A stretch of 64,000 nt of DNA from Parcubacteria group bacterium GW2011_GWA2_40_23 (GCA_000996245.1 LBYP01000002.1:5352-69351), one strand, 5' to 3'. Numbered from the stretch's first letter, positions 348 to 62,660 are shown. Notes: generated by a model from the sequence alone, not told the origin. Numbers and translations: made by a program.

Positions 348-385
348 AAAAAAAGGAGGGTCGACGCACTGTAGCATCGACCCTC
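348..385 (-). terminator. Intrinsic terminator of unit A1
   Basis: Reverse strand: GAGGGTCGA-N12-TCGACCCTC (9-bp perfect stem) followed by CTTTTTTT. Confidence 0.75.
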
Positions 386-979
386 GTGAACATGTCTTTA
401 CCACCGCGACCTTGACGGGCTTGCGATCAGAACAGCCCCGATCTTGGTCCGGCATGGATCCTCGGGGAACCGGCGTCCCATAGATACTGGGACGCGATGG
501 AGCTACGTGAACCAGCTCGGATACCGCTTGCACATGGCAAGTTCTCCTTCTGCTGTGGCCGCGAGCGTGGTGCTCGTTCTTCGGCCTCGTTCTTGCTCCA
601 GAACCGAGTTCGTGTGGCACGTCGCGAGTTGAGCTCTCGCAGCGTGCCGTCAGAAGCCGAAGATGAGCGTACCGGAGTGGAGCCGCATGAAGCCTCCGTC
701 TGCGGAATTCTCGCATCCAATTTCGAACTTCGAACCGTGTTGATCTCTTGTTGCTTGGTGAACAGCCTGTTGCACTCGGTGTTCCGCGGACTTGCTCGAT
801 GAACACAGTCTACAACAAATGAGTTCTGCGGACTTGTCCTACACGGGCGGGGGACGTGCTCTGAGCATGCGCACCTCCATGTTGTGGAACCTTGAGAACC
901 AACGTGGTGTTGATGGCCAGAAGCCGATATTCGAACGAACGCGGCTTCTTTCTCGCTAACACCACAAAAGCGAGACGAT
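348..979 (-). ncRNA. Unit A1: ~630-nt GC-rich transcript without a credible long ORF (candidate structured RNA, or decayed/scrambled coding cassette)
   Basis: Bounded by promoter 986-1014 and terminator 348-385. Many local helices, e.g. GCGTCCCA-N7-TGGGACGC at 473-495, and GGCACG/CGTGCC with nested GCGAG/CTCGC at 616-648. No frame shows the G/C third-position bias of the coding islands. The longest ORF (327-806) is Arg-rich and reads through the terminator. GGAGG (878-874) + 5 nt + ATG (868) opens only a 9-codon ORF, MLRARPPPV. Confidence 0.45.
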
Positions 980-13666: not shown

Positions 13667-13705
13667 TATGGCAATTGAACCTGTGCTACAACGATGGAGG
13701 AATCC

Positions 13706-13990
13706 ATGGATCTGATCGGATTGGACATGAAGGCTCGTCAGGCTCGGGAGAAGTTCACGGTCGTGACCAAGCTGGGTGATGCGGTCTGGACGCCGGCGGA
13801 GATCAACCGACTGGTGCACCAGTACAGAACCATCATCAGCACGCTTCCCAGGATGCCCTCCGTCGCGATTCTCGCGGGAGAGTACTCCAAGGACCAGCTC
13901 GTCGCGTTCCTCGGGACGGACAACTTCACCGTCGAGCTGATGGTCGGTCGCCAGAACCCCAAGCTGCCGTTCAGCGCTCCGATGCTCTGA
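13706..13990 (+). CDS. Island B1: 94-aa GC-rich protein of unknown function, paralog of B2
   Basis: GGAGGA ends 4 nt before ATG 13706. G/C-ending codons dominate. About 45% identity to B2 over ~67 aa (KFTVVT..G..VW..E..RL....PR..SVAI.AGE.SK...V..LGTD.F.VEL.V). Confidence 0.7.
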   Translation: MDLIGLDMKARQAREKFTVVTKLGDAVWTPAEINRLVHQYRTIISTLPRMPSVAILAGEYSKDQLVAFLGTDNFTVELMVGRQNPKLPFSAPML

Positions 13991-14020
13991 GCGCGGCAAG
14001 TTCGAAAGAGAGGAACGGAC

Positions 14021-14248
14021 ATGCTGGTTCTGTTGACTCCTGCCAAGTTCACCGTCGTGACCTTGTTCGGTTTTGGGGTGTGGCATAAGGACGAGGTTCA
14101 ACGTCTGGCGAACAGGCTGAGAGCCTGCGTCTACACGTATCCAAGGAGGCTTTCGGTCGCGATCATCGCGGGAGAGCACTCCAAGGCTTCGATCGTGGAC
14201 GTCCTCGGTACGGACGACTTCGGCGTCGAGCTGAAGGTCAAGTGCTAG
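14021..14248 (+). CDS. Island B2: 75-aa GC-rich protein, paralog of B1
   Basis: AGAGAGGAA SD-like motif 5-6 nt before ATG 14021; same conserved blocks as B1; followed directly by terminators. Confidence 0.7.
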   Translation: MLVLLTPAKFTVVTLFGFGVWHKDEVQRLANRLRACVYTYPRRLSVAIIAGEHSKASIVDVLGTDDFGVELKVKC

Positions 14249-17396: not shown

Positions 17397-18377
17397 CTAG
17401 TTGGTGAGCACGTGGCTGATGTCCATGTCCGGACTGACGATCAGCTTCTGTGCCGTGTTCTCGCCGATGACCTCGATCGCCTCGTTCGGACCCGTACCCA
17501 GGTTCGGGATGAACCCGATCTGGATGTACGAGTACTGCTCGAGGGGATCGACGTCGCAGCGCACGTCGAAGGCCGTCGTGGTGCCCTTGGGTAGGAAGAT
17601 GTCCGTCAGGTCATGGAAGACGAGCTGCGCGTTCCATCCCTCGGTGTTTACGTAGGGTTGACCCTGGTAGGCCAGGGTGTGGCCACCCGAGATCAGGCTG
17701 CAGTTGCGCACCTTCTCGAAGTGGTCCCCGGTCATCATCATCGACAGCGTGACCTCGGTGAGAACGCCGTCCTCGGCGTAGGCCGTGTCTTCGGCGTCGA
17801 CCATCAGGTAGAACGTGAACAAGTGGACCTGCGAACCTTCGACGAGCAGGTTGCTGGTTTCCTTCTTCCAGACCATGACGGTCGAGAATTGCGGCTCCAT
17901 GTACGGCGCGCAGACTTCTTCGACGGAGCAGTAGAACGTACGGTTGCCCCTGGCGATGGCGTCGTAGAAGGCTTGGAAGTTGCTGTGCCAGACGTTCATC
18001 ATCGCGATCTGCTTCTGCGCCGCGATCCGTCGCAGCTTGTAGGTCGGGATCATGGCGATGGGGTATTTGGGGTCTCCCGCCAAGGCCAGCTTGATCTTCC
18101 AGGTGTTGGTCGTCGCGTTCTGCGTCGCCTTGGCCAGGAACTGGCCCTCGTACTGGAAGTAGTAGCTGATGTTGTCGGTGAAGTTGGTCCACCCGACGCA
18201 GTCGGTGCCGTACCAGTCCGGCAACTGGCCGGTCAGGTTGAAGTAGTCGATGCTTTCCTGGTTGTACGTCTCGGCGACGTACTTGAGGTCGGCGAAGGTC
18301 TGGGGCGGACCGCCCCCGGCGTACGCGGCACTCGAGAAGCACAGGACGGCGAGCAGGGCGATGAGGGTCTTCTTCAT
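17397..18377 (-). CDS. Island C: secreted 326-aa GC-rich protein of unknown function
   Basis: Signal peptide MKKTLIALLAVLCFSSAAYA. GGAGGA lies 7 nt before the ATG. Near-exclusive NNC/NNG codon usage (checked codon by codon). Several Cys residues; no motif I can name. Confidence 0.8.
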   Translation of the reverse strand: MKKTLIALLAVLCFSSAAYAGGGPPQTFADLKYVAETYNQESIDYFNLTGQLPDWYGTDCVGWTNFTDNISYYFQYEGQFLAKATQNATTNTWKIKLALAGDPKYPIAMIPTYKLRRIAAQKQIAMMNVWHSNFQAFYDAIARGNRTFYCSVEEVCAPYMEPQFSTVMVWKKETSNLLVEGSQVHLFTFYLMVDAEDTAYAEDGVLTEVTLSMMMTGDHFEKVRNCSLISGGHTLAYQGQPYVNTEGWNAQLVFHDLTDIFLPKGTTTAFDVRCDVDPLEQYSYIQIGFIPNLGTGPNEAIEVIGENTAQKLIVSPDMDISHVLTN

Positions 18378-18476: not shown

Positions 18477-18499
18477 ACCTATTTTCATCGTTTTGCGAG

Positions 18500-18520
18500 C
18501 CTGCCTGCCGGCCAGGCAGG
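18500..18520. other. Isolated GC hairpin ~25 nt upstream of the island C -35 box
   Basis: CCTGCCTG-ccggc-CAGGCAGG, 8-bp perfect stem, no T-tract on either strand. Confidence 0.4.
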
Positions 18521-18661: not shown

Positions 18662-18696
18662 TAATCATGATAATCATGAAAATCATAGTTAATCAT
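18662..18696 (-). repeat. Phased array of four ATGATTA-like heptamers abutting the island D terminator
   Basis: taatcat at 18662, 18671, 18690 and aaatcat at 18680 (period 9-10 bp). Homologous to the array at 299-344. Confidence 0.6.
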
Positions 18697-18699
18697 GGC

Positions 18700-18735
18700 A
18701 AAAAAGAGCCCCACCGTTCGCGACGAACGGTGGGG
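18700..18735 (-). terminator. Intrinsic terminator of island D
   Basis: Reverse strand CCCCACCGTTCG-tcg-CGAACGGTGGGG (12-bp perfect stem) followed by CTCTTTTTT. Confidence 0.8.
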
Positions 18736-18740
18736 CAGGG

Positions 18741-19364
18741 CTAGAAGTTCCAGACCAGGCGCAGGTACAGCACGTGGTCACCCGCGATCTCCGGCGTGAA
18801 GTCGTAGGCGACCCAGATTCGGCCCGCGCCGAGCAAGATCGAGGGGCCGATGGCCGCCTCGTCGAACGTCTTCTCGGAGAAGAAGTTCTCCTGGACGATG
18901 CCGAACCCAGCGATGTTGCCTGGCTTCATCCAGTCGAGGGTGGTCAGCGTGTAGTAGTTCCGCTGCACGTGCCCCTTGTCGCCGTCGACAGGGAAGTAGA
19001 CGTCGCCCTCGACGCACAGGAGCAGGTCGCTTGGCAAGGGCTGCGTGAGCCAGATGCTCGCGAGAGCGGACATGCCGCCGTCGTTGGTCATCCAGAGACC
19101 TCCCAGGAGCTTGAGGTTCGTCTTCGTCGACAGGACGCTCATCTCCGGCCCGAAGTAGCCGAAGATCATGGAGTTGCCGCGCATTGACACCAGGCCGGTG
19201 GCGTGGGCGTAGATGCCGCCCGTGATGTTCTCGCTGAGCGTGAACGGGGAGAAGGTTCGGCCCAGGGTGACCAGGAACTGGCCGTTGGACTCGACCTTGG
19301 CCTCGGCGGCCGTGGGGATGATCATCGCACACAGCAACAGGATCACGAGCAGGAAGCGCTTCAT
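18741..19364 (-). CDS. Island D: 207-aa secreted protein with outer-membrane beta-barrel-like features
   Basis: Start placed at MKRF (ATG 19364) with GGAGG 5 nt upstream. Signal peptide MKRFLLVILLLCAMIIPTAAEA. Gly/aromatic-rich alternating pattern. C-terminus YLRLVWNF has hydrophobic residues at positions -1, -3, -5, -7 and a terminal Phe (classical OMP beta-signal). Confidence 0.7.
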   Translation of the reverse strand: MKRFLLVILLLCAMIIPTAAEAKVESNGQFLVTLGRTFSPFTLSENITGGIYAHATGLVSMRGNSMIFGYFGPEMSVLSTKTNLKLLGGLWMTNDGGMSALASIWLTQPLPSDLLLCVEGDVYFPVDGDKGHVQRNYYTLTTLDWMKPGNIAGFGIVQENFFSEKTFDEAAIGPSILLGAGRIWVAYDFTPEIAGDHVLYLRLVWNF

Positions 19365-19409
19365 CGAAGCCTCCAAAGTGGTGTGACGTCCCGTGAAACA
19401 GGACATTCT

Positions 19410-19437
19410 AATTTATCATAAATAATAAAAAAGTCAA
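19410..19437 (-). promoter_or_regulatory. Promoter of island D
   Basis: Reverse strand TTGACT (19437-19432), 16-nt spacer, TGaTAAATT extended -10 (hexamer 19415-19410). The -35 box ends 1 nt from the ATG of the divergent host gene at 19439. Confidence 0.55.
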
Positions 19438-19797: not shown

Positions 19798-20115
19798 ATG
19801 GATGCACGACAAAAGGTCGTGGCAGTGTTCGATCTTCCGCACGGTGAAGGTCAGGTCGATCTGATGGTCGACATGGCACTTGAGTCCAGCTGGACTGGCC
19901 AAGGAATCGATACTTCGTACTTCATGTTCCACAAGCCGCACTGCGGCGGTCCCATGCGGCCGATCAAGGTGGCGGACAAGAAGATGGTTCTGTACTGCAG
20001 CGGTTGCGTGTTGCGTCTTCAGCTTCTGATCATGAAACTGCCTACGAACCTGGGCGAACTCGGTGAAGCGATCAACGAGACCTGCACGCATTCGGATCTG
20101 CCCTCACGTTTCTAA
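19798..20115 (+). CDS. Island E: 105-aa GC-rich protein with Zn-ribbon-like Cys/His spacing
   Basis: AAGGAGG lies 5 nt before the ATG. HKPHCGGP ... YCSGC (H/C-x..-CxxC). G/C-ending codons. Confidence 0.7.
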   Translation: MDARQKVVAVFDLPHGEGQVDLMVDMALESSWTGQGIDTSYFMFHKPHCGGPMRPIKVADKKMVLYCSGCVLRLQLLIMKLPTNLGELGEAINETCTHSDLPSRF

Positions 20116-35069: not shown

Positions 35070-35315
35070 ATGTCAAAACTAGTTGATTTTTTGAAGTTTC
35101 CGTGGCTAATTAGAAGCATACGTGAAATAAAAATTTTGTATTTAATTGTTTTTGTGATGTTGGCGGTACAAACAATTTTGTCCGCTCTTTTATTTATGCG
35201 TCTCGAGAAGCTTGATAATAGCTTTATCGATTACCGCGAAACATCCATGAAACGAATTAACCAGATTTACGGTCAGGTCTATTCCCTATCGTCGAGAATT
35301 GAAAATAAAAAATAA
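35070..35315 (+). CDS. Small single-TM protein (81 aa), same architecture as 34690-34959
   Basis: One TM helix plus a short helical tail. The stop overlaps the next ATG (TAATG). Confidence 0.5.
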   Translation: MSKLVDFLKFPWLIRSIREIKILYLIVFVMLAVQTILSALLFMRLEKLDNSFIDYRETSMKRINQIYGQVYSLSSRIENKK

Positions 35316-38300
35316 TGTATTTATATAATATAAAAATAAAATTTAGTATGACAAAAACAATTTTCATGAATCGTGCTTTTGTCAGTATTATCGCCGTGGT
35401 TACTGTTTTTACCATGAGCGGTATTGCTGGCTTAATACAACCGGCTAACGCAGCTAATCCCCCGCTTGATCCACCGTTAACAACGGCACTAGTTTATTCT
35501 AATCTTGTTGAACCAACAAATTTGACTGTTGGCGTGGATGGAAGTGTTTTGATTGCTGATTTTGACCTTCAAGGAAATGATCAACCATTAAGTAGTTTTA
35601 TGGTTTATGTTGAACCTGTAGGAGATTTTGACCCAGCAACTGATTTGGGTGCAGAAGGTTTGGCAAGTTTCACTCTTGGAATTGTTGAATCACCACAGGG
35701 GCCAGATGACGTTTTATTAAGTTTTATTGGAAACACTCCCATGGTTGGTTCGGGATTCTTTACTGGTATGTATGCTTATCAACTAACTCCAACCGGTTCA
35801 GATCCTTTAATTTCCAGTACCCTTACCACGTACTACCTAAACGCCGTGTATACGGATACGGCCGTTGTTGGGCATTCATTTGTGGTAAAAATCACTTCCC
35901 TTTCTGTTGCTTCTGGTGAATCTGCTGCAGTTTTTACGAACGTAGTTGGAGGTGATCCTGCATTACTAACAACAGAAACAATGACTTTTGTTGAAGGCGA
36001 AGAACCACCACCGGGTGGGGATGGTTTTTCCTTGGTCGCCTACGGTCCGATGCAACAAATGACTATTCCTAAATACGCTCCTGTAGATTTTTTCTTCAAT
36101 GAAGATTTAAATAGCGCTGTGAGAGCAGATTTAGATAGTTATTTTCAAACAGACCCGGTAGTTGCTGGCAATTGGAATCTCTATGATGAATATTGGGGCG
36201 AAAATCATATTTATCATGTTGGGTTTTTTCCGGCTGATGGTTGGGAGACAGGTACGTCTTACAATGTTAAAGCAGCAAAAAGCATTACAAACACTGAGGA
36301 TGAAGCATTTTCATTGGATTTGGGTGGCGGTGATGGTTTTGAATATGGTGACATGGCTTCTGACGAACTTTTTTATTATTTTACTGTTGTCGGTAGTGAT
36401 CAAGAAGACAGTGGTTACTTCCCTCCCATGGCTTTCTTGGGTTATCCTAATAATGAAATGCATAATGTACCAACAAGTTTACAACAGATAGGTGTTGAAT
36501 TTGATCGTAATGATATGGATGCTACAACGTTTACTAACGAAAATATTTATTTAGTCAAAGTTTCACCTGGCGGTGGCGAAGAGACGGTTGATGATGTAGA
36601 ACTATCCCCTGCAAGCGGCTTATCTGGCTCTGTAAGTTTGTCTGGATTTACATTAGAGGCAAATACTAAATATAGGGTTTATGTAACTCGCGATGTCATG
36701 GATAGCCGCGGGAATCGACTAGCTGGACAATTTAGTCAAGGTAGTGAACCCGGTCCCTTTACGAGCAGTTTTTATACTGGTGGAGGTTCAGATCAGCTTA
36801 TAGCTAGGTACATGGGCACAAATTTGAATTTTTTTAGAAATGGTGCCGGACAAATTGTTAACGTCCCCACGGCTGAAAATGTTCGACTATCATTTGACAA
36901 TCCTTTAATGGCCTCATCATTAACGGGCAATATTACAATTGAACCAAGCTTGGGCTGCGGTGAAGGTGGAGATTTATCTTTGTCGTATGATGCCAACTCT
37001 TTTGAAGCAATTGTAATCCCAAACTGTCTTTTTACCGCTTCAACTTCTTATACCTTAAGCTTTGAAGATTTAATGTCGGTTACGGGAACGGAGGTTAACG
37101 CTGGTAGTCTTGTTTTCACGACAGGACTAGCAGATGCCGCACAACCAACAATAAATTCTGTTATGGCCGACAATTATGGTTTGATAATTGAATTTAACGA
37201 GCCAATGGACACTACTCTTGCAGAAAACAAAGGAAACTATGCCTTAAAAGTGCGGAATGATGCTACAGACTGGGCAGAAGTTACAGCCACTCCACTTTCA
37301 AATGCTGTTGTCAGATATGAAAGTGATAATAAAACCGTGTTCATAGATATCTCATTGACTGCTGGGTCTGAATATCAAGTAACTGTCAGCAGCAATTTAA
37401 CAGATTTATCTGACAATCCCCTTTTGACTGATGGCGGTGTTAATGTTCGTACCGGTTATGTTATGGACGCGTCAAAATTTGCGGGCGGTCAAGGAAACCA
37501 AGGCATGGGTGGTAGTACTTTCGACATGGGAAACATGGGAGAAATGCCAATTGCTGTACGACCTATGTCAAAATTAGTTGGAGTTACAACAAAATATTTT
37601 GTTGATTTACCGATAAGTCAACAAATTAATGCTGGTGGCAAAATTGAATTTTGGTTCCCACAGGGATTTATAACGAGTGCTGCGATTCGTGATGCGCAAA
37701 GTCCAGTAAATGGTGACTTTAATCAACCAGCACCAGGTAAACCAAGTTTTGCGAATACAGATCCTGCCGGCACAACCAGTAATGGTGTTGCCAATGATGG
37801 TATTGGCATAATCGGCGAGCGAACTATTGTAATTAAGTTGAGCGAGGGTACTATGCCACAGGATTTTTTGCGTATCGACCTTGATGGCATTGTCAATTCT
37901 TCTACTGTGAAAAAAGAAGATACGGCAGGTTGGCAGGTCAGCATAATGACATATAATTCTTCAGGTGTAATGTTAGAAGGGCTTACATCAATGCCATTTT
38001 ATACGAGTGCTGGTGGTACAAATTCATTGACGGTTGACATTGATGGCGTTAGTGACGGTGACGATGGTTCTTTGGGAGTTTACCTATTCTCCCCCATGAC
38101 CGGTCAAATTATGCAAACAGCGACAATTACGGGCGATGAGTCAGAAGGGGTGGCCGATGGTAGTGTCACTTTCAATAATTTAGATGATGGACAATATGAG
38201 TTCTTCACAGATAAAAATGCACAACTAGATGGCAATATGTACTATGGGAATTCATTTATGGATAGTATTTCGCTGTCAGGCGGTGAGGATGAAACAAGAG

Positions 38301-41300
38301 AAATTATCTTTTCTGATCCTGCAACGCAAGACAATTTATACGCATTAGAAGTTACATTAATTGGAGATTTTACAACCGATGGCGAAAATGACAATGTTGA
38401 TATTTTTGCTGGTTCACCAAATGGATTTCGGGTTATCACGGCTTCACCGGGCAATACTGCTGGTTATCCTGTGACTCTATATTTACCTGATGGTGAATGG
38501 AATGTCGGTATGGGGCCGGCCATGTCTGCAACATCAACGATGGCTTCTCAAATAGATTGGATGCCACCACAAAATCAATTTGTTAAGGTTTGGAATAATG
38601 GATGGAATGCGAGCGTGCAAGAAGTAATATTGGATAGCAGTAATATAGAACAGTATTCAATCAGCGGATCAGTTGTTGATGAAAATGATGTTGGAATTGC
38701 TGATGTTGAAGTTTATGCCTATCAACCGCAAGCAAGTTTCGGAAAACAAAGTGTTAAAACGCAGTCAGATGGTTCTTTTGTCTTGAACGTAGGCTGGCCG
38801 GGTGTTTATACTCTTGGTACAAATAAAAATGGTTTTCCGGAGTCTTCACAGCAATCGATTGCGGTTAATGATGATGTCTCTGATGTTAGTTTTGTGTTGA
38901 AAAAACCAGCTTTTACAATTTCTGGCATGGTAAAAGATTATAATGGTAATGGCGTCCCTAACGCTCCTGTTTGGTCCTATCAAACAGCGGGTGGATTTGG
39001 CTGGTCTGGGACATCAACAGACGTAACAGGTTCATTTATTCTTTATGTTGATACGGGTACTTGGATGGTTGAATCAGACCCAAAAAGTGTCGGGTGGATG
39101 CAATACTCTGATGCAATTGAAATAACAGATGAATCTGTCAGTGGCATTACACTCCAACCAGATACTGATCTTGATTATGTAACCATAACAGGAAATGTAA
39201 GCATAGATGGTAATGCATATACGTACGGACCTATTCGGGCTGTAAAATACAATGCCAATGGGTCATTCGCTGGTCAGCAATATGGTGGTCAAACTGATAG
39301 TCAAGGAGATTATTCAATAACAGTACCAGAAGGAATTTATCGTGTAGATATTTGGGCTCCTGGTTATGGAGAGATTGAACGAACAGACTCTGATGATTAT
39401 CCAAATAACCCTGCAAACGTAAATGCAACCAGTGGCAATGTTGACGGAGTTGATATTACTGTCGGTGCGGATGACTTAATTGATGTCAGCGTTAATTTTA
39501 CAAATCTCGATAGCGGCGAATATGACGGTGTGTCAGCTTTTGTAACACTTAGTGCTGTTAACTTGGGGACAGGAATCCCTACCGGATACAAAAACAATAT
39601 CATGATCAAAAACATTGCTGACCCAACTTTTGATAATATTGTTAAGGTCAAGGAAGGAAATTATTTTGCCTTTGTTCAAGTGCCAGGGTATGGTGAATTT
39701 ATTCCGTTAGAGGGCCAACTAAATGCGGCCACAACACCAGGATACATTGATGTAGGCGCTGGAAGTACCGATAGTAATACACTCACTATTGATCTTCCGG
39801 ATGTAGATAATTTAATTACAGTCACTGGCTCTGTAATTGATGCAGAAGAAAGTCCAGTAGAAAATGCTTGGGTGACAATCAATAACATGGAAAAAGGTTT
39901 TAATCGCGGAGTTAATACTGATAGTAGCGGTGAATTTTCGATTAATTTACCGGTTCTTCAATCAGGAAATTATAATATTGCTGTTGGTAAACCAGGTTAT
40001 ATGGCTGTGACGCCAGAAGCTGTTGATTTAACTGATGTAAATCTAAATGGTATTGCTGATGCATTATATGAATTTACACTTCAACAGCAAACAGCACTTA
40101 TTACAGGTAATATATTTGCTGATAAAGATGGAGGCACAAATAATGTTCTTGATGTGGGAGAAGGTCTCGCTTATGGTTGGATCTTTGCTCAAGAAACAAT
40201 TACAGGTCTAGTAAGTAATACACCTGTTGATGGCAAAGGATATTATCAACTTGGAGTTGTTAATGGTACCTGGGAAGTTTTTGGTAATGCGGATGGATAT
40301 GAACAAACACAGTATAAATCGGGCGGAGTACCTGCAACGATTGTTGTCAACAATGGAAACCAAACCAACAAAAATATTGAACTTGGTTTGCGTGCAGATT
40401 GGAACAAAAAAACCAAAAAGAGCCCCATGACTTTGAATCAAGGTGGTACTATTGATGATTCAGCTTCAACCGGAACTGGTGTTAAATTGGTTGTTCCAGC
40501 GAATGCCATGGGGACATCAAGTTCTTCTGGGTCATTCAATATATCGAACACAACATCAGTTGGTTCATCTAATACGTCTAGACCCTTTGGTATGGAAGGA
40601 AAAGTTGTTAGTGCTGTTGATGCAGATGGTCAACCAATCACGACATTAAGCGATTACATTGACATTGAAATGGTTGTTTGGAAATCAGAAGTTGATGCTG
40701 AAATTGCAGCTGAAAGAATGACTGAAATGTCTGATCTTTTATCCGCTCAACTTGGGTATTATGACAATTCAACAGATAATTGGGTCGCATTAGAAACAAC
40801 GCGTGTCGCCTACTATCAAGAAAATGAAGATGATGCAGAATGGAAAACTTACATTAGCGATGATGAAACATTAAATGATTATGAAGCTTTTATTACGGAT
40901 GCTTTGATTGACGAAACCTTCACTGCTTATTTCGACTATAAGCTTGTTTTCACAGCCAAAACAAACCACTTAACGACTTTTGGGGTAACAACCGCGCTCG
41001 GTGTTGCCGGTGGCGAGGAATCAGCTAATGATGCACCAAGAAGCACTAGCGGCGCCGGTTCAGCTGTTATTCTTGTAACTGAAACAATTGTAGACAAAGC
41101 TATTACAGTTCCCCTTTCAACTTCATCATCAACAGTAGTTTTATCAAAGGCAGGGACTATGAATTTTACAAGCTCCGGTTTAGCTCATAGTTTAACGCTC
41201 AAAAATGTTGATGTGACTGGTCAGTCAGCAATTTTAGTAGTAGCGAGTACCCCCTTCGAAGTAACGGCTAAATTGAACAAGGCGGAATTAGTAGACATAA

Positions 41301-42001
41301 ATAAAGATGGTGTTAATGACATGGAAGTCTTGTTAACAGCGATAAATTCAGCAAATGATGTGAAATTAACAGTGAAGTTATTAGTTGGGGCGAGTATAGT
41401 CCCTCCAGGAGCCGTTGTGACACCAACTCCTGTAGCTGAAACACCCGCAACCACAGCTGTTACCACAGAGTATATGCCTCGTAAAGCTGCTGTGATTAAT
41501 CTTATGAGTGAACAGCAGGCCTTAACTGACTTCATTGCTTTGACAAAACTCGTACCAAACACGCAAGCCGACAACTGGGTAGTAGATTACCTTGCTTATG
41601 GTAATTCAACTCGTACCTTGGCAATGTCAGCTCGAGAAAGAAAGGGCATCTTGGAAGATTTTATCTCAATTTATGGCAACTTACCTAAGACTGAAAGTGA
41701 TTGGAAGGCTCTAGCTGAAATAGCGGCCGGTAAAGTCACTCCTAAGCGTGTTATTGCTCAGGAAGTTAAAGCGATCAAGGAATTCTTTAAAATCTTTAAG
41801 AAGACTGTTAATTTTAAAGATAAAACCAACGAATCCTTTGTTCACAAATTGTCTTATAGAATGCGAGTTGATCAGCGGAATTTAGCTAAGGAGCAAACAG
41901 CTTTAACTAAATTTATAAAAGTGTATCAAAAGAAGCCTTGGGATGGATATGCTTGGTCGATTGTGAGAGCACTCGCCTATTCTGGGATATTAGACAAATA
42001 A
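35315..42001 (+). CDS. Giant (2228 aa) secreted/cell-surface protein with Ig-like and CarboxypepD_reg-like repeats (alternative start ATG 35348)
   Basis: Signal/anchor NRAFVSIIAVVTVFTMSGIAGLIQPANA. Repeated modules of the type ISGSVVDENDVGIADVEVYAY...SDGSF and VTGSVIDAEESPVENAWV...TDSSGEF. Thr/Ser/Gly/Asp-rich and Cys-poor. Confidence 0.85.
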   Translation: MYLYNIKIKFSMTKTIFMNRAFVSIIAVVTVFTMSGIAGLIQPANAANPPLDPPLTTALVYSNLVEPTNLTVGVDGSVLIADFDLQGNDQPLSSFMVYVEPVGDFDPATDLGAEGLASFTLGIVESPQGPDDVLLSFIGNTPMVGSGFFTGMYAYQLTPTGSDPLISSTLTTYYLNAVYTDTAVVGHSFVVKITSLSVASGESAAVFTNVVGGDPALLTTETMTFVEGEEPPPGGDGFSLVAYGPMQQMTIPKYAPVDFFFNEDLNSAVRADLDSYFQTDPVVAGNWNLYDEYWGENHIYHVGFFPADGWETGTSYNVKAAKSITNTEDEAFSLDLGGGDGFEYGDMASDELFYYFTVVGSDQEDSGYFPPMAFLGYPNNEMHNVPTSLQQIGVEFDRNDMDATTFTNENIYLVKVSPGGGEETVDDVELSPASGLSGSVSLSGFTLEANTKYRVYVTRDVMDSRGNRLAGQFSQGSEPGPFTSSFYTGGGSDQLIARYMGTNLNFFRNGAGQIVNVPTAENVRLSFDNPLMASSLTGNITIEPSLGCGEGGDLSLSYDANSFEAIVIPNCLFTASTSYTLSFEDLMSVTGTEVNAGSLVFTTGLADAAQPTINSVMADNYGLIIEFNEPMDTTLAENKGNYALKVRNDATDWAEVTATPLSNAVVRYESDNKTVFIDISLTAGSEYQVTVSSNLTDLSDNPLLTDGGVNVRTGYVMDASKFAGGQGNQGMGGSTFDMGNMGEMPIAVRPMSKLVGVTTKYFVDLPISQQINAGGKIEFWFPQGFITSAAIRDAQSPVNGDFNQPAPGKPSFANTDPAGTTSNGVANDGIGIIGERTIVIKLSEGTMPQDFLRIDLDGIVNSSTVKKEDTAGWQVSIMTYNSSGVMLEGLTSMPFYTSAGGTNSLTVDIDGVSDGDDGSLGVYLFSPMTGQIMQTATITGDESEGVADGSVTFNNLDDGQYEFFTDKNAQLDGNMYYGNSFMDSISLSGGEDETREIIFSDPATQDNLYALEVTLIGDFTTDGENDNVDIFAGSPNGFRVITASPGNTAGYPVTLYLPDGEWNVGMGPAMSATSTMASQIDWMPPQNQFVKVWNNGWNASVQEVILDSSNIEQYSISGSVVDENDVGIADVEVYAYQPQASFGKQSVKTQSDGSFVLNVGWPGVYTLGTNKNGFPESSQQSIAVNDDVSDVSFVLKKPAFTISGMVKDYNGNGVPNAPVWSYQTAGGFGWSGTSTDVTGSFILYVDTGTWMVESDPKSVGWMQYSDAIEITDESVSGITLQPDTDLDYVTITGNVSIDGNAYTYGPIRAVKYNANGSFAGQQYGGQTDSQGDYSITVPEGIYRVDIWAPGYGEIERTDSDDYPNNPANVNATSGNVDGVDITVGADDLIDVSVNFTNLDSGEYDGVSAFVTLSAVNLGTGIPTGYKNNIMIKNIADPTFDNIVKVKEGNYFAFVQVPGYGEFIPLEGQLNAATTPGYIDVGAGSTDSNTLTIDLPDVDNLITVTGSVIDAEESPVENAWVTINNMEKGFNRGVNTDSSGEFSINLPVLQSGNYNIAVGKPGYMAVTPEAVDLTDVNLNGIADALYEFTLQQQTALITGNIFADKDGGTNNVLDVGEGLAYGWIFAQETITGLVSNTPVDGKGYYQLGVVNGTWEVFGNADGYEQTQYKSGGVPATIVVNNGNQTNKNIELGLRADWNKKTKKSPMTLNQGGTIDDSASTGTGVKLVVPANAMGTSSSSGSFNISNTTSVGSSNTSRPFGMEGKVVSAVDADGQPITTLSDYIDIEMVVWKSEVDAEIAAERMTEMSDLLSAQLGYYDNSTDNWVALETTRVAYYQENEDDAEWKTYISDDETLNDYEAFITDALIDETFTAYFDYKLVFTAKTNHLTTFGVTTALGVAGGEESANDAPRSTSGAGSAVILVTETIVDKAITVPLSTSSSTVVLSKAGTMNFTSSGLAHSLTLKNVDVTGQSAILVVASTPFEVTAKLNKAELVDINKDGVNDMEVLLTAINSANDVKLTVKLLVGASIVPPGAVVTPTPVAETPATTAVTTEYMPRKAAVINLMSEQQALTDFIALTKLVPNTQADNWVVDYLAYGNSTRTLAMSARERKGILEDFISIYGNLPKTESDWKALAEIAAGKVTPKRVIAQEVKAIKEFFKIFKKTVNFKDKTNESFVHKLSYRMRVDQRNLAKEQTALTKFIKVYQKKPWDGYAWSIVRALAYSGILDK

Positions 42002-45103: not shown

Positions 45104-45220
45104 TACCTGTTATTCAAGTGTTTACCTTAGCTTTTTGAGGCTGAGTTAATTTCCGCCTTTTAAAGGTGTAGTGAACACCACAAGTGATCTGTTCCCCAAC
45201 CATCCGTGAGGAGGTGCCTG

Positions 45221-46735
45221 ATGCTGTACCAGAAACTGCTCGATGCGAAGATCGGAGTCGGTCCGGCCACCATCACCAAGCTCGACGAGGCGGGTCTCAA
45301 GACCGCCGAGGCCATCCTGGCCGCCGGGCTCGACGGGCTGCGCGCCATCAAGGTCTTCCCGCCGATCGCGGGCAAGATCCTCGAGGTCGCGCTCGCCAAC
45401 CCGACGCCCGCCACCGAGATCGAGGCCGCGTCGGCCCCGATCATCCTCCACCCCGACGACGCGGCCAAGGTGGCCGAGGTCGCCCCCACCACCACGAAAA
45501 ACGAGACCCCCGCGGTCCTGGTCAAGCGGCAGACGGTGTTCGCCGCCAAGCTCGAGGAGGCCGCCAAGGCCAACGGTACGACGGTGGAGGAGCTCCGCGC
45601 CGCCGCCAAGGCCAACGTGCCGGCCGAGAAGCCGGTCGTGGTGACCCACAAGACCCTGGCCAAGCCCGAGAACGAGCACGTGAACTTCATCGACGTCGGG
45701 ATCGAAACCCCGACCGAGTTCACGAGCCCCGTGCGTCTGCGCGACTTCTTCGACAAGCTGCCCAAGGGGCAGGTGCCGGACAGCGCGCGCTACATCAAGA
45801 ACCTCTTCCCCGTCTGCGCGATGTGTCGCGCCGCGGGCAGCACGAAGACCCTCCAGATCGACCACGTGCACGTGCTCGTGGTCACCCGTCTCGACGGCAG
45901 CGTCAACAGCGGTTTGTTCTGCGACGACCACATCACGGTGGCGTACGGACAGGCCAAGGACCTGGTCAAGGACGGGAAGCTGAAGGAGGTCAAGATCATC
46001 TGGCTGCGCGAGGCGTGGGCCAACCTGACCCGCGCGTACAGGGCGCAGGTCGACGAGGCGCGCGAAGAGCGCTACCGCAAGGAGCGCGCCGACCGCCGCA
46101 CGGCCGCCCTCCGGGCCGTGATGGAGGATCTCGGCTCGGTGACCAGCGAGCACTGGATGACCGACGAGCAGCTCGGCAGCTACGTGTCGCCCATGGACGT
46201 CCCGGTCTTCACGTGCGGACTCGAGGCGAAGCAGGCCCGTGAGCTGCACCTCCTGCCCAACGACAAGGAGAAGGGTACGTTCAAGGGGCGCTGGGGGCGG
46301 TTCTACGACGAGTACGGCATCCGGCTCGTCATGCGGCCCCCGCAGGACCTGACCCAGCACAACACGCTCGTCCAGCACTTGCGGGACGACGCCAAGGCCG
46401 CCCAGGCCACGCCGTTCTTCCCCGTCGTCCTGGTCCGCCGTTACTTCGGTGACGACCTGGGCTGGCGCTACCTGGCGATCCACGAACTGGTCATCGAGGA
46501 GTTCGTGGCGACCTACGAGCAGGCGCACAACTTCAAGGTGCGCACCGGGGCCATGGCCTACGAGTGGCTGACCCGTCGCTGGGAGGTCCAGCGCGAAGAA
46601 GCCGCCAAGGCCGCGGCGCAGGCGTTCGCCAAGAGCGACGAAGGCAAGGCGCTGAACGCCTTCCTCAACGCCGCCCCGGACGACGAGGCCGCCGCCGACA
46701 GCGCCCTGTTGGCCGGCAGCGCCCACAAGAAGTAA
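45221..46735 (+). CDS. Island G: 504-aa GC-rich protein with N-terminal helix-hairpin-helix pair and a CxxC..DH..N..CxxH (HNH-like) motif
   Basis: GAGGAGG lies 6 nt before ATG 45221. HhH-like KIGVGPATITKLDEAG and LRAIKVFPPIAGKILE. Cys/His motif VCAMCRAAGSTKTLQIDHVHV...VNSGLFCDDH (nt 45815-45931). Strong G/C third-position bias only in this frame. Confidence 0.75.
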   Translation: MLYQKLLDAKIGVGPATITKLDEAGLKTAEAILAAGLDGLRAIKVFPPIAGKILEVALANPTPATEIEAASAPIILHPDDAAKVAEVAPTTTKNETPAVLVKRQTVFAAKLEEAAKANGTTVEELRAAAKANVPAEKPVVVTHKTLAKPENEHVNFIDVGIETPTEFTSPVRLRDFFDKLPKGQVPDSARYIKNLFPVCAMCRAAGSTKTLQIDHVHVLVVTRLDGSVNSGLFCDDHITVAYGQAKDLVKDGKLKEVKIIWLREAWANLTRAYRAQVDEAREERYRKERADRRTAALRAVMEDLGSVTSEHWMTDEQLGSYVSPMDVPVFTCGLEAKQARELHLLPNDKEKGTFKGRWGRFYDEYGIRLVMRPPQDLTQHNTLVQHLRDDAKAAQATPFFPVVLVRRYFGDDLGWRYLAIHELVIEEFVATYEQAHNFKVRTGAMAYEWLTRRWEVQREEAAKAAAQAFAKSDEGKALNAFLNAAPDDEAAADSALLAGSAHKK

Positions 46736-46855: not shown

Positions 46856-47473
46856 ATGAATGCGAAACATCTTCCTCCGCCCACTCCCACGACGCTCTCC
46901 GAAGCGTTTTGGCCCCTGTTCATGACGAACAAAGTGATGGTGCGTTTTGTCGGTGCGTATATCTGCTTCGGCGTGGCAGATGACAGCAACCGACTACTCG
47001 TAGTGTATGCACACGACACTGCCAGCCGATTGCATCTTCCTACACAGGAAGCAATTGCTCGAGCGTTCCCTCTGCGGAATGCCAAACAACAAGAATACAC
47101 CGGACCACATGATCTGCCAGTGTCGTACAGTGACATTCAACGAGTTCGCAACGTGATGCGTTATGAGTTTCTTCAGGAAAACCGGCGCGTCTTACTGCTT
47201 GTTTCGACTCCTGAGGAGTCGGTAGTTGAAAACCAGGAACAACTCATGTTCATCCAATGGAGTAGACCGAACCCACTTCAAATTGCTCGCATCGTCGAAA
47301 CTATTGGTGCGGATCGTGTCCACGTCGTACGAAAAAATGCGCTGGAAACGCGCCTCCTGGTGGAGTTGAAACCCAATGAACGATTGAAGTTCTCTGTGAC
47401 CGGTTGCCACTTCAGCAGCCCCTTTGCAACTGCGGCTCTGTTGCCGGTGCAGTGCGACACCTGCACTGCTTGA
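46856..47473 (+). CDS. Island H: 205-aa protein of unknown function (intermediate GC)
   Basis: AAGGAG lies 6 nt before the ATG. Bounded by its own promoter and terminator. No recognisable motif. C-terminal Cys pair CDTC. Confidence 0.65.
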   Translation: MNAKHLPPPTPTTLSEAFWPLFMTNKVMVRFVGAYICFGVADDSNRLLVVYAHDTASRLHLPTQEAIARAFPLRNAKQQEYTGPHDLPVSYSDIQRVRNVMRYEFLQENRRVLLLVSTPEESVVENQEQLMFIQWSRPNPLQIARIVETIGADRVHVVRKNALETRLLVELKPNERLKFSVTGCHFSSPFATAALLPVQCDTCTA

Positions 47474-47529: not shown

Positions 47530-48735
47530 CTAAATTTCATCAATAAATTTTTTGGTAAATTCTTGTCGAACCGGATGTAATAGTTTTAATAGTTCATCTT
47601 TTTTGACCCACTTGATGGCAGCGACTTCCCTATTTGGTCGGAATTGATTTGAGTCGATAGCCCCGCTATATTCTACTAAAAATGCAATTTGCTTTTGTCC
47701 TTTGTACCCATGAAGTAATTGATAATGTTTTGGTGAGATATAGGCATGTTCTGCCTTAATTCTTTTAACTACTTTCATCTTATCTAATTCGAATCCGAGC
47801 TCTTCATTAATTTCACGCAGGATTGCAATCTCAATATTCTCGTTTTTATCAACGCCGCCTTGTGGAAATTGCCAGTGATTGGGAAGATGAGCATTTTCTT
47901 GAATTAAATATAGACCGTCTTTGTTTTTTATAACGCCGAGAACATTGGCACGATATTCTGTTTTAATTCTTTTAGCCCATTTATGACATTCTAAAAGAAA
48001 ATCTGCGGTGGCATGTTTAATGCGCATCAACCTTTTTGGTTCTTGATAAAGTCTAAAGAGCCATTCCATTCCCAGTTCTTGCATTAACTTTGGCGCGCGC
48101 TTTATCTTGCCTGATAAAAAATCAAAAGATCCCCCGACACCCAATGCTATTCTGACTGATGATCCATACCCCTTATCCCCTATCCCTTTTCCCAAATTGT
48201 TTTCAATCCACTCCTCTTGTTCTGGCGCACCCAAACAGACAAACAATACTTGAGTTTGATGCTTTTTGATTTTGTCCAAAAGAACTTTATCAGCGATTGG
48301 AGTTTTAGCGGATAAAGCACATCCAAGTTTAACTTGAGGATATGAATTATCGAAAAACTTTTTTAGGTCCTCAAGCGTTGTTAGCGAATCGTTTCGTAGA
48401 AGTACAAAAACACGAGCCGAGTTGTTTTGGCCTAATAGTTCGCGCGTGAAGTCAGCGCCTGTGACTCGGTTTTTTAAATCTGTTCCAAGTATTTTGGCAC
48501 CGAGTTTGAGCCCAAAGCCATCTGGCAAATTTAAGTCTGCCGAGTTCAATGTGTCTTTGTATTCTTCCGAGCTTGCAGCTTTTAAGCAGATTTCTGGGTT
48601 GGGCGTATAAACGCTATGGGGAGCATCCGAGGCCATGAACTCCCTGGTTTTTTCAAGAAAATATTCCAAAGGCTGGTCGTCTATTTTAACGCCAAGAATT
48701 ATCGCTTTGTTTTGTAGGTCTTTGGGGACGTTCAT
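47530..48735 (-). CDS. Fusion protein: WecG/TagA/CpsF-family glycosyltransferase + C-terminal NUDIX hydrolase
   Basis: GAPEQEEWI ... GVGGSFDFLSGKIKRAP ... GMEWLFRL (WecG/TagA motifs), then NUDIX box GGVDKNENIEIAILREINEELG. Start at MNVPKDL (48735), because the track extension overlaps the clpB promoter. Confidence 0.8.
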   Translation of the reverse strand: MNVPKDLQNKAIILGVKIDDQPLEYFLEKTREFMASDAPHSVYTPNPEICLKAASSEEYKDTLNSADLNLPDGFGLKLGAKILGTDLKNRVTGADFTRELLGQNNSARVFVLLRNDSLTTLEDLKKFFDNSYPQVKLGCALSAKTPIADKVLLDKIKKHQTQVLFVCLGAPEQEEWIENNLGKGIGDKGYGSSVRIALGVGGSFDFLSGKIKRAPKLMQELGMEWLFRLYQEPKRLMRIKHATADFLLECHKWAKRIKTEYRANVLGVIKNKDGLYLIQENAHLPNHWQFPQGGVDKNENIEIAILREINEELGFELDKMKVVKRIKAEHAYISPKHYQLLHGYKGQKQIAFLVEYSGAIDSNQFRPNREVAAIKWVKKDELLKLLHPVRQEFTKKFIDEI

Positions 48736-48809
48736 AATGTTTTGATACTTGTGGGTAAACAAGAACAATATAGCAGATTTTTGCTTAAATTTAAATAACA
48801 CCACTAGAT

Positions 48810-48837
48810 TTGACAAATTATGGCTATCCCCTATAAT
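48810..48837 (+). promoter_or_regulatory. clpB promoter
   Basis: TTGACA (48810-48815), 16-nt spacer, TATAAT (48832-48837). Confidence 0.65.
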
Positions 48838-61219: not shown

Positions 61220-62215
61220 TTAATTTAAAAATAATTTTGTATCAAGGGCAAAAATGCGATCGGAAAAATCTGCCGGAGAGCCTTGATTATCGAAGATAGC
61301 TTTATCAGCGACGTTAACCTTAGTAGATAGATCATCCAAATGATTTAGCGCAACTGCTTCGCGTGTTTGTGGTAAAACAGGGCTACCAAACTCTAAACGG
61401 CCATGATGACTGGCAATTAAATGTAGCACTTTTGTTTTTAATAAATCAGGAAAATCTTTTATACTCTCGATAGCTTTAGACACAGCAATTGTGCCTAACA
61501 TTAAATGACCAATGAGCGCCCCATCAACAGTACGAAAAATTGTATGATTTACATCCAATTCATCGAGTTTGCCAATGTCATGTAATAAAACTCCAGTCTT
61601 TAAAAGATCTTTATCTATTCTTGTAAAACTGGCACATAAACATTCTGCTAATGCAAGCATCTCGGATACATGTTCTACAAAACCACCAACGTAAGCATGA
61701 TGTATACGTTCTGCTGCCGGAGCTTTCTTGAACTTTTCGATAAATTTTTCATCTTTAAAAAAAGAATTTACGAGTTTCTTTAAATCATCATTCTCGATAC
61801 TATCGACTTGTTTTAAAATTGTTTTGAAGAGCGCTTCTAAATCCTTCTCTGATCCGGGTAGAAAATCGGCTGTTTCTTGATTTTGAGCTTTTTGTAAAAA
61901 TGAAATTATAAGTTGATTTTTTTCTTTAAATTCATTGACCTTGCCTCCAAGACTAATGATGTCACCAATCTCAAACTCATCACAATTGTTCAAATTATCT
62001 TCCCAAATTTTAGCTGTTATTTCACCGGTTCGATCAGCTAAAATAAGGTCAATAAAATCTTTATTTTGGCTGGTTTTCCCTTTTTTAATGTCTCGTACTA
62101 CTGCTAAAAAATTGGCGACTTGGTCTCCGGCTTGTAAATCCTTGATGAATTTATCTTTCATATTTGATTGTTTTTTATGATTTGTGACCTCTTCTATAAA
62201 TGAAAGTTGAGTCAT
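61220..62215 (-). CDS. YhaM-like OB-fold + HD-domain 3'-5' exoribonuclease (alternative start 62161)
   Basis: N-terminal OB fold (FLAVVRDIKKGKTSQNKDFIDLILADRTGEITAKIW) and HD domain (HHAYVGGFVEH ... LLHDIGK). The track's 80-codon N-terminal extension runs into island I and is rejected. Confidence 0.75.
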   Translation of the reverse strand: MTQLSFIEEVTNHKKQSNMKDKFIKDLQAGDQVANFLAVVRDIKKGKTSQNKDFIDLILADRTGEITAKIWEDNLNNCDEFEIGDIISLGGKVNEFKEKNQLIISFLQKAQNQETADFLPGSEKDLEALFKTILKQVDSIENDDLKKLVNSFFKDEKFIEKFKKAPAAERIHHAYVGGFVEHVSEMLALAECLCASFTRIDKDLLKTGVLLHDIGKLDELDVNHTIFRTVDGALIGHLMLGTIAVSKAIESIKDFPDLLKTKVLHLIASHHGRLEFGSPVLPQTREAVALNHLDDLSTKVNVADKAIFDNQGSPADFSDRIFALDTKLFLN

Positions 62216-62276
62216 AATGCTGTGATTTATACTAAAATAGCGTAAGAGTATAAAATTATTATAGCATTTTTTGAGA

Positions 62277-62312
62277 AATATAAAAGGCGCACTGATCTTG
62301 AGACCAGGCGCC
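62277..62312 (-). terminator. Terminator of island I
   Basis: Reverse strand GGCGC..CTG.TCT..AGA.CAG..GCGCC extended imperfect stem followed by CTTTTATATTT. Confidence 0.6.
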
Positions 62313-62318
62313 AACGTT

Positions 62319-62660
62319 CTACGCAGCTGCAACGATTTTCTTGATTTTTCGACGCAGTTCAATCGCATCGAAAGGCTTGGTGACCACTTCGTCGGGTTGC
62401 TCGGCACAAGAGAAGTGTTCTGGCGGGGCGCTTGAAACCATGATGATGCGAGCATCAGGGCAAAGTCGTCGTGCGTAGACGATGAACTCGGCTCCCGTCA
62501 TTCCAGGCATGTCGTGGTCTGTGACAATGACCCGGGCTGAGCGACCGCTAAGGCATTTTAAGGCCTCGAATGGTGAATGATGCGTTCGGTGTGGCAAAGT
62601 ACCAGCAACAGCCTTGAATAGAGCTAGATTCTCTGGCAGATCATCAACGAAAAGCACCAT
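62319..62660 (-). CDS. Island I: stand-alone CheY-like response-regulator receiver domain (113 aa)
   Basis: VLFVDD acidic pair, VIVTDHDMPGMTG phospho-acceptor Asp context, IIMVSS, TKPF lysine. AGGGAG lies 7 nt before the ATG. GC-rich codons. Confidence 0.8.
   Translation of the reverse strand: MVLFVDDLPENLALFKAVAGTLPHRTHHSPFEALKCLSGRSARVIVTDHDMPGMTGAEFIVYARRLCPDARIIMVSSAPPEHFSCAEQPDEVVTKPFDAIELRRKIKKIVAAA

Follow-up and report, generated by a model that had tools for sequence, protein, structure and literature searches.

The window, i.e. the whole 64-kb stretch of DNA that was analysed, carries at 18700–19437 a single transcription unit that fills this interval exactly, running from a promoter through a 5′ hairpin, a ribosome-binding site (RBS) and a coding sequence to an intrinsic terminator. 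Its gene, designated D, and the associated features all lie on the minus strand:

18741–19364, minus strand: gene D, CDS of 207 aa plus stop codon; GC 0.63, GC3 0.94; predicted precursor of a 12-stranded barrel
19410–19437, minus strand: promoter of gene D from a promoter scan (TTGACT, 16 nt, TAAATT, with a TG extension)
19388–19404, minus strand: 5′ hairpin of the D transcript (GTCCTG-tttca-CGGGAC), beginning approximately at the predicted transcription start
19370–19374, minus strand: Shine-Dalgarno sequence of D (GGAGG), 5-6 nt before the ATG
19299–19364, minus strand: Sec signal peptide of D, residues 1-22 (MKRFLLVILLLCAMIIPTAAEA), with predicted cleavage before K23, as read from the sequence
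18744–18767, minus strand: last strand of D, the β-signal-like YLRLVWNF, residues 200-207
18700–18736, minus strand: intrinsic terminator of D, a 13-bp stem with 10 G-C pairs followed by a T-run

The −35 box of this promoter overlaps the start codon of the divergently transcribed dciA (19439). An in-frame ATG at 19406, which would extend D to 221 aa, was rejected as an alternative start because it coincides with the predicted transcription start and lacks an RBS; the starts of D orthologs mostly match the region of the 207-aa start, with two carrying a few additional N-terminal residues. GC content at the three codon positions of D (0.54, 0.41 and 0.94) follows a periodicity which argues that its frame is the real one, rather than one of the overlapping ORFs typical of GC-rich stretches. 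Taken with homologs in other assemblies and a dN/dS below 1, this identifies D as a real gene and not a chance ORF. The layout of the promoter is kept in the orthologous loci L016, L011, L002, L007 and L001, as is the GGAGG upstream of D in orthologs. The 5′ GTCC…GGAC hairpin is likewise kept, with changes that preserve pairing (e.g., GTCCTGtttCAGGAC and GTCCTgtcgtaaAGGAC), and the terminator is 96% identical in L010. The window holds one cluster of ATGATT/AATCAT repeats, located only at the 3′ flank of D. These repeats were discarded as an insertion signature, as they are not conserved in relatives and L016 has a different repeat at this place.

The codon style of D recurs in at least five further single-gene units of the window:

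17397–18377, minus strand: gene C, encoding a secreted protein of 326 aa that has conserved cysteines and belongs to no known family; GC3 0.91
18476–18448 (promoter) and 17370–17345 (terminator), minus strand: gene C's own signals
19798–20115, plus strand: gene E, a 105-aa orphan and possible zinc ribbon; GC3 0.68
13694–14248, plus strand: genes B1 (13694-13990) and B2 (14021-14248), tandem small orphan paralogs; GC3 of B1 0.84
45218–46735, plus strand: gene F, a 505-aa orphan with its own promoter, GAGGAGG RBS and terminator; GC3 0.95

The units comprise one gene or a tandem pair with a strong RBS, a hairpin terminator and a promoter-like site (clear in five of six, weaker for E). GC3 in the window is bimodal, with ~44 host genes at 0.24-0.38 versus 0.84-0.95 in B1, C, D and F (F2 has 0.54), and GC1 and GC2 of the units are only slightly raised. 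Codon choice in the units is the mirror image of that in host genes: asparagine is encoded by AAC in 100% of cases in the units versus 20% in host genes, with corresponding values of 98% versus 17% for ATC, 85% versus 10% for CTG plus CTC, and 93% versus 26% for AAG. The word-indexed search returned no homologs of C, and a structure model of C from its single sequence reached a pLDDT of 38.7 and was hence left unused. Pfam, NCBIfam, PHROGs and PADLOC had no match for D or the other GC-rich units, whose proteins are all orphans, and an Rfam scan of the window returned nothing.

Otherwise, the content of the window is of the housekeeping type, including an ATP synthase operon, mreBCD-pbp2, six aminoacyl-tRNA synthetases, ClpB, PriA, FtsQ and glycosyltransferases. 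Its AtpD, ProRS, ClpB, QueA and LysRS exactly match proteins of 'Parcubacteria group bacterium GW2011_GWC2_39_14' (KKR07557, KKR07569, KKR07590, KKR07602 and KKR07576, respectively). GW2011_GWC2_39_14 is a CPR genome from the Rifle aquifer, and a bin whose name carries the matching sample, GC and coverage code, PER_GWC2_39_14, is listed as Peregrinibacteria (98% complete, 38.5% GC, 1.32 Mb; PMC5113843). The syntenic contig CAZMEQ010000005.1 is labeled 'Gammaproteobacteria'; we reject this label, given 20 kb of synteny with the window and given that AtpD and ClpB of the window resemble those of E. coli no more than those of Bacillus, Thermus or Mycobacterium. The sequence-only reading had proposed a CPR/Patescibacteria-like host of monoderm type, and this is borne out by the exact protein matches to a CPR genome and by a literature that describes CPR bacteria without an outer membrane (see below).

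A word-indexed search of 5.8 billion protein clusters identified six homologs of D. All six loci are GC-rich islands within contigs of 29-36% GC. D adjoins dciA in the five of them long enough to show this flank, and a 990-aa UvrD/PD-(D/E)XK helicase gene lies on its other side wherever that region is covered. Further D loci came from GTDB representative genomes (L011) and from JGI metagenomes (L016 and L019). The order dciA / D / (C) / helicase is common to L002-L011, L016, L019 and the locus of P0024, and is held down to 51% identity; even at P0024, a remote D homolog (profile E 6e-35), synteny is unchanged. C adjoins D in most relatives and is hypervariable, E is conserved across dciA on the side away from D, and the B units are found in L016 and missing from L011 and L002. 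None of the usual traces of mobility was seen at this locus: a tRNA scan found no tRNA genes in the window, D has no flanking repeats or mobility genes, and there is no integrase next to it, the XerC/D-like gene of the window being 14 kb away. Searches for relatives of D, C and F in IMG/VR, of F in GenBank phages and of D in PLSDB plasmids were negative, and no GC-rich replicon carrying the unit genes was found. Nor did the searches reveal homologs from a donor lineage closer than those of CPR bacteria; the profile search gave one distant member (~24% identity) on a contig of 66% GC. Together, these data show that D has long resided in a CPR (Peregrinibacteria-like) clade and is inherited vertically there, integrated with the regulatory DNA of the host between dciA and the helicase gene; it is not recently transferred cargo. 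The family may have an ancient origin in a diderm, which would leave these conclusions on D unchanged.

The reach of the family was assessed by an exhaustive profile search of 1.84 billion representatives, which yielded 47 clusters at 50% identity. Members are 184-226 aa long and matched over most of their length, bar three clusters (a protein truncated to 103 aa and two very long ones that match only locally). Repeating the word-indexed search with a 42-sequence profile brought little gain. Among the sampled contexts, L020 is a CPR-like contig of 46% GC with a DUF5671 gene and an IleRS fusion, on which the D-like gene has a GC3 of 0.63 versus about 0.5. In L012 and L013 (contigs of 37-42% GC) the GC3 of the D-like gene is only mildly raised, and L015 is another island-like pair. 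L021 lies on a contig of uniform 66% GC that also carries a response regulator and may come from a diderm, and in L019 a distant paralog separates D from C (hhalign E 2.6e-5). Judged by these contexts, members of the D family are mostly seen in CPR-like DNA, though also outside it.

With a dN/dS of 0.17-0.22 in close pairs, the D protein is under purifying selection, yet it evolves much faster than its neighbours, and the secreted protein C likewise changes fast. Thus, L011 and L007 share 95% identity in the helicase and 87% in D, while the window and L016 share 90% in the helicase, 67% in D and 45% in C; deeper pairs have 72-79% in the helicase and 58-64% in D. Divergence of D is concentrated in its middle (residues about 38-153, dN 0.37; nucleotide identity 60-74%), whereas the signal-peptide end and the C-terminal 54 residues have been conserved (82-96% nucleotide identity at the ends). 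For C, ω between the window and L016 is 0.83; strains with flanks of 99-100% identity differ in whether they have the gene, and its alleles are all ~45-48% identical to one another. The branching order of D is that of the helicase, so vertical descent, combined with rapid change at some of the sites, suffices to account for D. Allele exchange between lineages was considered as a cause of its divergence and is unneeded, as relatedness in D tracks relatedness in the helicase; the one apparent case of exchange, L006 and L011, turned out to be one and the same strain. Such fast change in D and C is the behaviour of surface molecules in conflict, be it with phages, hosts or competitors.

The base composition of D changes in a step. 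GC is about 0.30-0.37 in the flanks and 0.62-0.64 inside, and the GC-rich stretch spans only the region from the 5′ UTR to the terminator; dciA has a GC3 of 0.29, and both the 300-nt C-D spacer and the end of the helicase gene are AT-rich. When the window is compared with L011 or L002, four-fold degenerate sites of host genes are 0.27-0.43 identical (0.24-0.33 expected from composition), and those of D 0.45-0.50 (0.41-0.42 expected), with 87-90% of the D sites being G/C. A transfer relic would have decayed toward the host composition over this time; saturated four-fold sites together with a GC3 that is still high thus indicate that the composition of D is being held. Comparison of the window with the closer relative L016 shows how: a four-fold site with G/C changed to A/T at 19% of island sites versus 70% of host-gene sites, and swaps between G and C occurred at 18% against 2.7% in the same island/host-gene comparison. 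The GC3 of the units is therefore actively maintained, with synonymous sites turning over between G and C and rarely going to A/T.

We considered whether mRNA structure within the coding regions is what is selected, and rejected this. Whole transcripts fold with z = -4.6 and -4.2, but this signal stems from the 5′ hairpin and the terminator, and coding sequences compared with synonymous-codon shuffles have z-scores of -1.7, -0.5 and -0.4, like host genes. The coding regions of the units are nevertheless about twice as stable per nucleotide, owing to their GC content. Regional mutation bias and biased gene conversion fit poorly with a GC step at the transcript ends that leaves dciA and the C-D spacer untouched. 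A force confined to the transcribed region makes selection on the transcript or on its decoding the more likely explanation, and the options for maintenance are selection on transcript stability, selection on decoding in the sense of a codon-defined regulon, or the partner-cell reading described below. Selection strong enough to hold nearly every third position at G/C is difficult to square with the small genome of a symbiont, and we know of no proven mechanism for codon-level selection of this kind. A literature search for GC3-rich units of this type in CPR bacteria found no description.

The predicted D protein begins with a signal peptide, as claimed from the sequence before, and its layout is that of a canonical Sec signal: MKR, a 14-residue hydrophobic core (FLLVILLLCAMIIP) and TAAEA, with AEA directly before K23. 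AlphaFold2 modelled this N-terminal signal as a helix, and a signal peptide is present in 42 of 42 aligned family members. D has no match in Pfam or NCBIfam and none among PDB sequences. Its fold was addressed by structure prediction, a check that the sequence-only reading had proposed. From an alignment of six sequences only, AlphaFold2 returned a barrel-type model (pLDDT 76.9, pTM 0.68) that consists of the N-terminal helix followed by nothing but long antiparallel strands. DSSP counts 11 strands in this model, not 12, with the last 20 residues near a pLDDT of 60. Counting the 16-residue first strand as two would put the longer connections (5, 4, 10, 3 and 9 residues) on one side and the short turns on the opposite one, as in outer-membrane proteins. 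A Foldseek search with the model gave its best TM-scores (0.58/0.68) to KdgM. Its E-values were weak, none being at or below 1e-3; all strong structural matches are integral membrane barrels, and the best ones are 12-stranded.

The family alignment supports the same fold from column statistics. In 42 sequences, variable L/V/I/F positions alternate with the invariant Q29, E119, D121, E159, E169, D188 and R202, and the conserved aromatics are Y70, W105, Y123, Y138, W184 and Y187; the columns thus display lipid-facing hydrophobic residues alternating with a polar lumen, along with aromatic girdles. Charged residues, both acidic and basic, are accordingly conserved on the face of D that does not contact lipid. 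One or two of the 42 relatives touch DUF481, Phenol_MetA_deg and BBP2, all of them outer-membrane barrel families, at sub-threshold E-values of 0.002-0.005. An oligomeric β-barrel pore-forming toxin was rejected, since in the model one chain makes up the whole barrel (11-12 strands) and such toxins do not occur among the structural matches.

Model, structural matches and residue pattern thus agree with the original observation of an outer-membrane β-barrel-like product, which stands with two corrections. The first concerns size: 8-10 strands had been proposed, but the best structural matches have 12. The second concerns the C-terminus, which had been described as a classical β-signal. In the D protein of the window, YLRLVWNF is indeed hydrophobic at -1, -3, -5 and -7 and ends in Phe, and the alternation of hydrophobic residues round R202, invariant in 42 members, holds across the family. 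The terminal Phe does not, as the last residue of the 42 members is more commonly Leu (19) than Phe (8) or Val (5). Taken together, the modelling and the family pattern make D a predicted Sec-exported, single-chain transmembrane β-barrel of the outer-membrane type, with 12 strands and very short loops. The D family, of previously unnamed ~200-aa proteins, is a new family within a known fold class.

Where might such a barrel act? A porin would be of no use in the cytoplasmic membrane of a one-membrane cell, so D would have to act in another lipid layer. In the mechanism we propose, D would cross the single membrane of its producer by Sec export, and the barrel would then provide a small channel in some lipid layer distinct from this membrane. 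Our favoured site is the membrane of an attached partner or host cell, where D may act at the symbiont interface as a pore for nutrient leakage or uptake; the second choice would be an outer layer of the CPR cell that has so far escaped notice, with or without a BAM-type machine. Placement in a partner membrane, one of the options raised by the sequence-only reading and the one we favour, fits the arms-race-like divergence of D, its linkage to the hypervariable secreted C, and a symbiotic lifestyle as inferred for Peribacteria-related organisms (PMC4736985). Overall, D is best read as a new family of small transmembrane β-barrel channels, long resident in a CPR clade, that probably acts at the cell surface or in a partner membrane. 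We know of no insertion machinery for such a barrel in a monoderm, and a porin released outside a monoderm cell could also harm the producer's own membrane.

A more conventional arrangement would be that the clade has an outer membrane or a layer resembling one, with D being an ordinary small porin inserted by a BAM-type machine encoded elsewhere in the genome. Signal peptide, barrel and β-signal-like last strand do give D the look of a BAM substrate, the family is widespread with its 47 clusters, the inspected DNA amounts to 64 kb of a 1.32-Mb genome, and direct observations of envelope architecture exist for very few CPR bacteria. We nonetheless judge this arrangement unlikely, though a serious rival. 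Surveys of thousands of CPR genomes report neither TonB-ExbBD nor PilQ, microscopy suggests that there is no Gram-negative envelope, and CPR bacteria have probably lost their second membrane (bioRxiv 10.1101/2022.09.22.508938). Related Peribacteria have sortase and S-layer genes (PMC4736985), and the 64-kb window, with its ~50 ORFs, has no gene for outer-membrane biogenesis.

For the composition of the units, the rival to selection is GC-biased gene conversion, or repeated replacement of alleles from a GC-rich pool at recombination hot spots. Several features of the locus are what this would produce, namely the hypervariability of D and C between close relatives, the far lower identity in the middle of D than at its ends, and the gain or loss of C between near-identical strains with alleles only about 45-48% identical to each other. 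The extent of the GC-rich stretch speaks against it, since it ends at the UTRs and leaves dciA, the helicase end and the C-D spacer AT-rich; the less variable B1 and E and the conserved ends of D are also GC-rich, D relatedness tracks host relatedness, and no GC-rich replicon with these genes came to light. We therefore hold such an origin of the high GC to be quite unlikely and retain selection on the transcribed region as the better account.

That D is a soluble secreted barrel, e.g. a carrier that scavenges lipids or other hydrophobic molecules, rather than a membrane channel, appears very unlikely. A conserved set of polar and charged residues next to a variable hydrophobic face is the pattern of a lipid-facing exterior with a functional lumen, a 12-stranded barrel would be too wide for a packed hydrophobic core, and the strong structural matches are without exception integral membrane barrels. 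The idea does account for the unusually short loops, and it matches the lifestyle of CPR bacteria, which are unable to make fatty acids and must acquire their lipids; moreover, a monoderm offers no obvious membrane for such a barrel.

A bolder reading holds that the units D, C, B, E and F are written for another decoding environment, with a high-GC diderm partner cell producing or assembling their products. The units would reach this partner where the two cells touch, as transcripts or as DNA; its Sec and BAM machineries would then insert the D barrel into its outer membrane, giving the parasite a conduit. It cites the generic signals of each unit (near-consensus sigma-70 promoter, GGAGG, intrinsic terminator), the protective 5′ hairpin and the mirror-image codon usage and, if true, would jointly explain a BAM-type signal without BAM, the held GC3 and the arms-race-like divergence. 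We consider it highly improbable.

Finally, the GC of 0.63 and GC3 of 0.94 in a genome of 35-39% GC, the lack of matches in Pfam, NCBIfam, PHROGs and PADLOC, and a distant homolog on a 66% GC contig might suggest an island recently acquired from a high-GC diderm and non-functional or decaying in its monoderm host, but this is scarcely tenable for a gene that occupies the same locus in all relatives including the remote P0024, has intact and conserved regulatory signals and a dN/dS of 0.17-0.22, keeps its GC3 at saturated four-fold sites, and has no mobility genes, tRNA or flanking repeats and no matches in viral, phage or plasmid collections. Two proposals of the sequence-only reading are not supported either: non-functional cargo does not agree with a syntenic gene whose promoter, 5′ hairpin, RBS and terminator are kept under purifying selection, and D as the mark of a diderm donor lacks backing, as no donor was found, every close homolog lies at the same CPR locus, and GC3 remains near 0.9 between relatives at which four-fold sites are saturated.

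CPR/Patescibacteria are regarded as having lost the outer membrane and its whole assembly machinery. A conserved, selected barrel family of the outer-membrane type in such a bacterium therefore implies that an outer lipid layer was kept, that assembly can proceed independently of BAM, or that pores are placed in the membranes of partners. The last of these, if true, would provide a concrete and testable molecule for nutrient extraction by a symbiont. In addition, a GC3 near 0.9 beside neighbours at 0.3, persisting through saturating divergence, constitutes a natural experiment on the maintenance of bacterial GC, with selection, biased conversion and mutation as the causes at issue. D thus seems to be a known fold class in an unexpected host, within a compositional phenomenon that is apparently undescribed.

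Among known systems, the closest in structure are the small 12-stranded porins KdgM and NanC (PDB 4pr7, 4fqe, 2wjr and 8xua), which are channels for acidic sugars. Sequence identity to D is 6-9%, the Pfam KdgM family (PF06178) does not match D, the loops of D are much shorter, and its lumen has conserved acidic residues, whereas KdgM and NanC conduct acidic sugars. D also differs in its host, a CPR bacterium without a known outer membrane or BAM. Matches to DUF481 (PF04338), COG4313/Phenol_MetA_deg (PF13557, PDB 4rl8) and BBP2 (PF07642) are far below curated thresholds, and D of the window itself matches none of the three. The β-barrel outer layers of Terrabacteria, i.e. the toga Omp-β of Thermotoga and SlpA of Deinococcus, are built from much larger, trimeric barrels unlike D; Thermotoga and Deinococcus keep BamA, and an outer layer of their type is not known from the D clade. 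For a single-chain barrel acting in a foreign membrane, the placement we favour for D, neisserial PorB provides a precedent, as it ends up in host cell and mitochondrial membranes. PorB, however, is inserted into the outer membrane of the cell that makes it before it leaves, a route with no known counterpart in a monoderm. With classical genomic islands, the D units share a sharply atypical base composition, orphan content and the variable presence of B and C. In contrast to such islands, each unit is single-gene and has no integrase, tRNA or repeat borders, and here D and E are syntenic across deep divergence, with a composition that is not drifting toward that of the host.

The gene encoding D, the 207-aa predicted outer-membrane-type beta-barrel, is one of several GC3-rich units in the window. 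At least five further single-gene or tandem units display GC3 values of 0.54-0.95, as compared to 0.24-0.38 in host genes:

13694-14248, GC3-rich unit or units
17397-18377, GC3-rich unit (gene C, encoding a 326-aa secreted protein and adjoining D)
19798-20115, GC3-rich unit
45218-46735, GC3-rich unit
46856-47473, GC3-rich unit

Each GC3-rich unit possesses its own RBS and terminator, and most a clear promoter-like site. Their products are orphan proteins without exception, and together the units take up ~10% of the window.

The spacer between D and C harbors two elements:

18663-18696, four AATCAT repeats spaced ~9-11 nt apart, immediately 3′ of the D terminator
18497-18520, G+C-rich near-palindrome CCTGCCTGCCGGCCAGGCAGG, directly upstream of the gene C -35 box

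The AATCAT cluster is the only one of its kind in the window. In the same spacer of the close relative L016 (10640-10800), five TTCGTAA-like repeats take its place, and both sets of repeats may represent binding arrays for a regulator. The near-palindrome, which lies in an otherwise AT-rich spacer, is not conserved in L016.

L019 carries an additional signal-peptide gene between D and C:

L019 1915-2568, 217-aa signal-peptide protein, GC3 0.65

Its product is a distant D-family paralog (hhalign probability 75%, E 2.6e-5). Loci L006 and L011 (10620-11800), with flanks that are 99-100% identical, are separated by a 1.1-kb indel that removes gene C and, in L006, also changes the final strand of the D barrel (protein P0005). 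Given the L006 coverage of only ~1x, this indel is possibly an assembly error. The L011 record (CAZMEQ010000005.1) is labeled 'uncultured Gammaproteobacteria bacterium'. Over 20 kb it is syntenic with the CPR window, and a 90% ClpB cluster is common to both. Probably the record is mislabeled, or else a contig of CPR origin ended up in a bin with those of another organism.

GC is locally raised at further spots of the window. The stretch at 300-1290 (GC 0.5-0.6) lacks codon periodicity, had no match in Rfam and gave MFE z-scores of -3.6 (plus strand) and -2.7 (minus strand). This stretch, which might represent a degenerate unit or else a structured RNA of unknown type, contains the first of these two features:

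~355-395, minus strand, hairpin followed by a T-run
62319-62660, minus strand, stand-alone 113-aa receiver domain (Response_reg, E 3e-9), GC 0.52

The receiver-domain ORF, a further such spot, shares sequence with the 5′-terminal part of the ORF called for an HD/OB-fold gene (61220-62455).

Two unusual fusions were observed, namely a WecG/TagA glycosyltransferase joined to a NUDIX domain (window 47530-48816, minus strand) and, on the distant CPR-like contig L020 (11815-15549), an IleRS into which a His_Phos_1 domain is inserted. Finally, the window encodes a very long protein with host-like codon usage (GC3 0.28):

35315-42001, plus strand, 2228 aa, Big_5 and CarboxypepD_reg domains

This protein is probably a member of the group of giant surface proteins that has been described in Peregrinibacteria.
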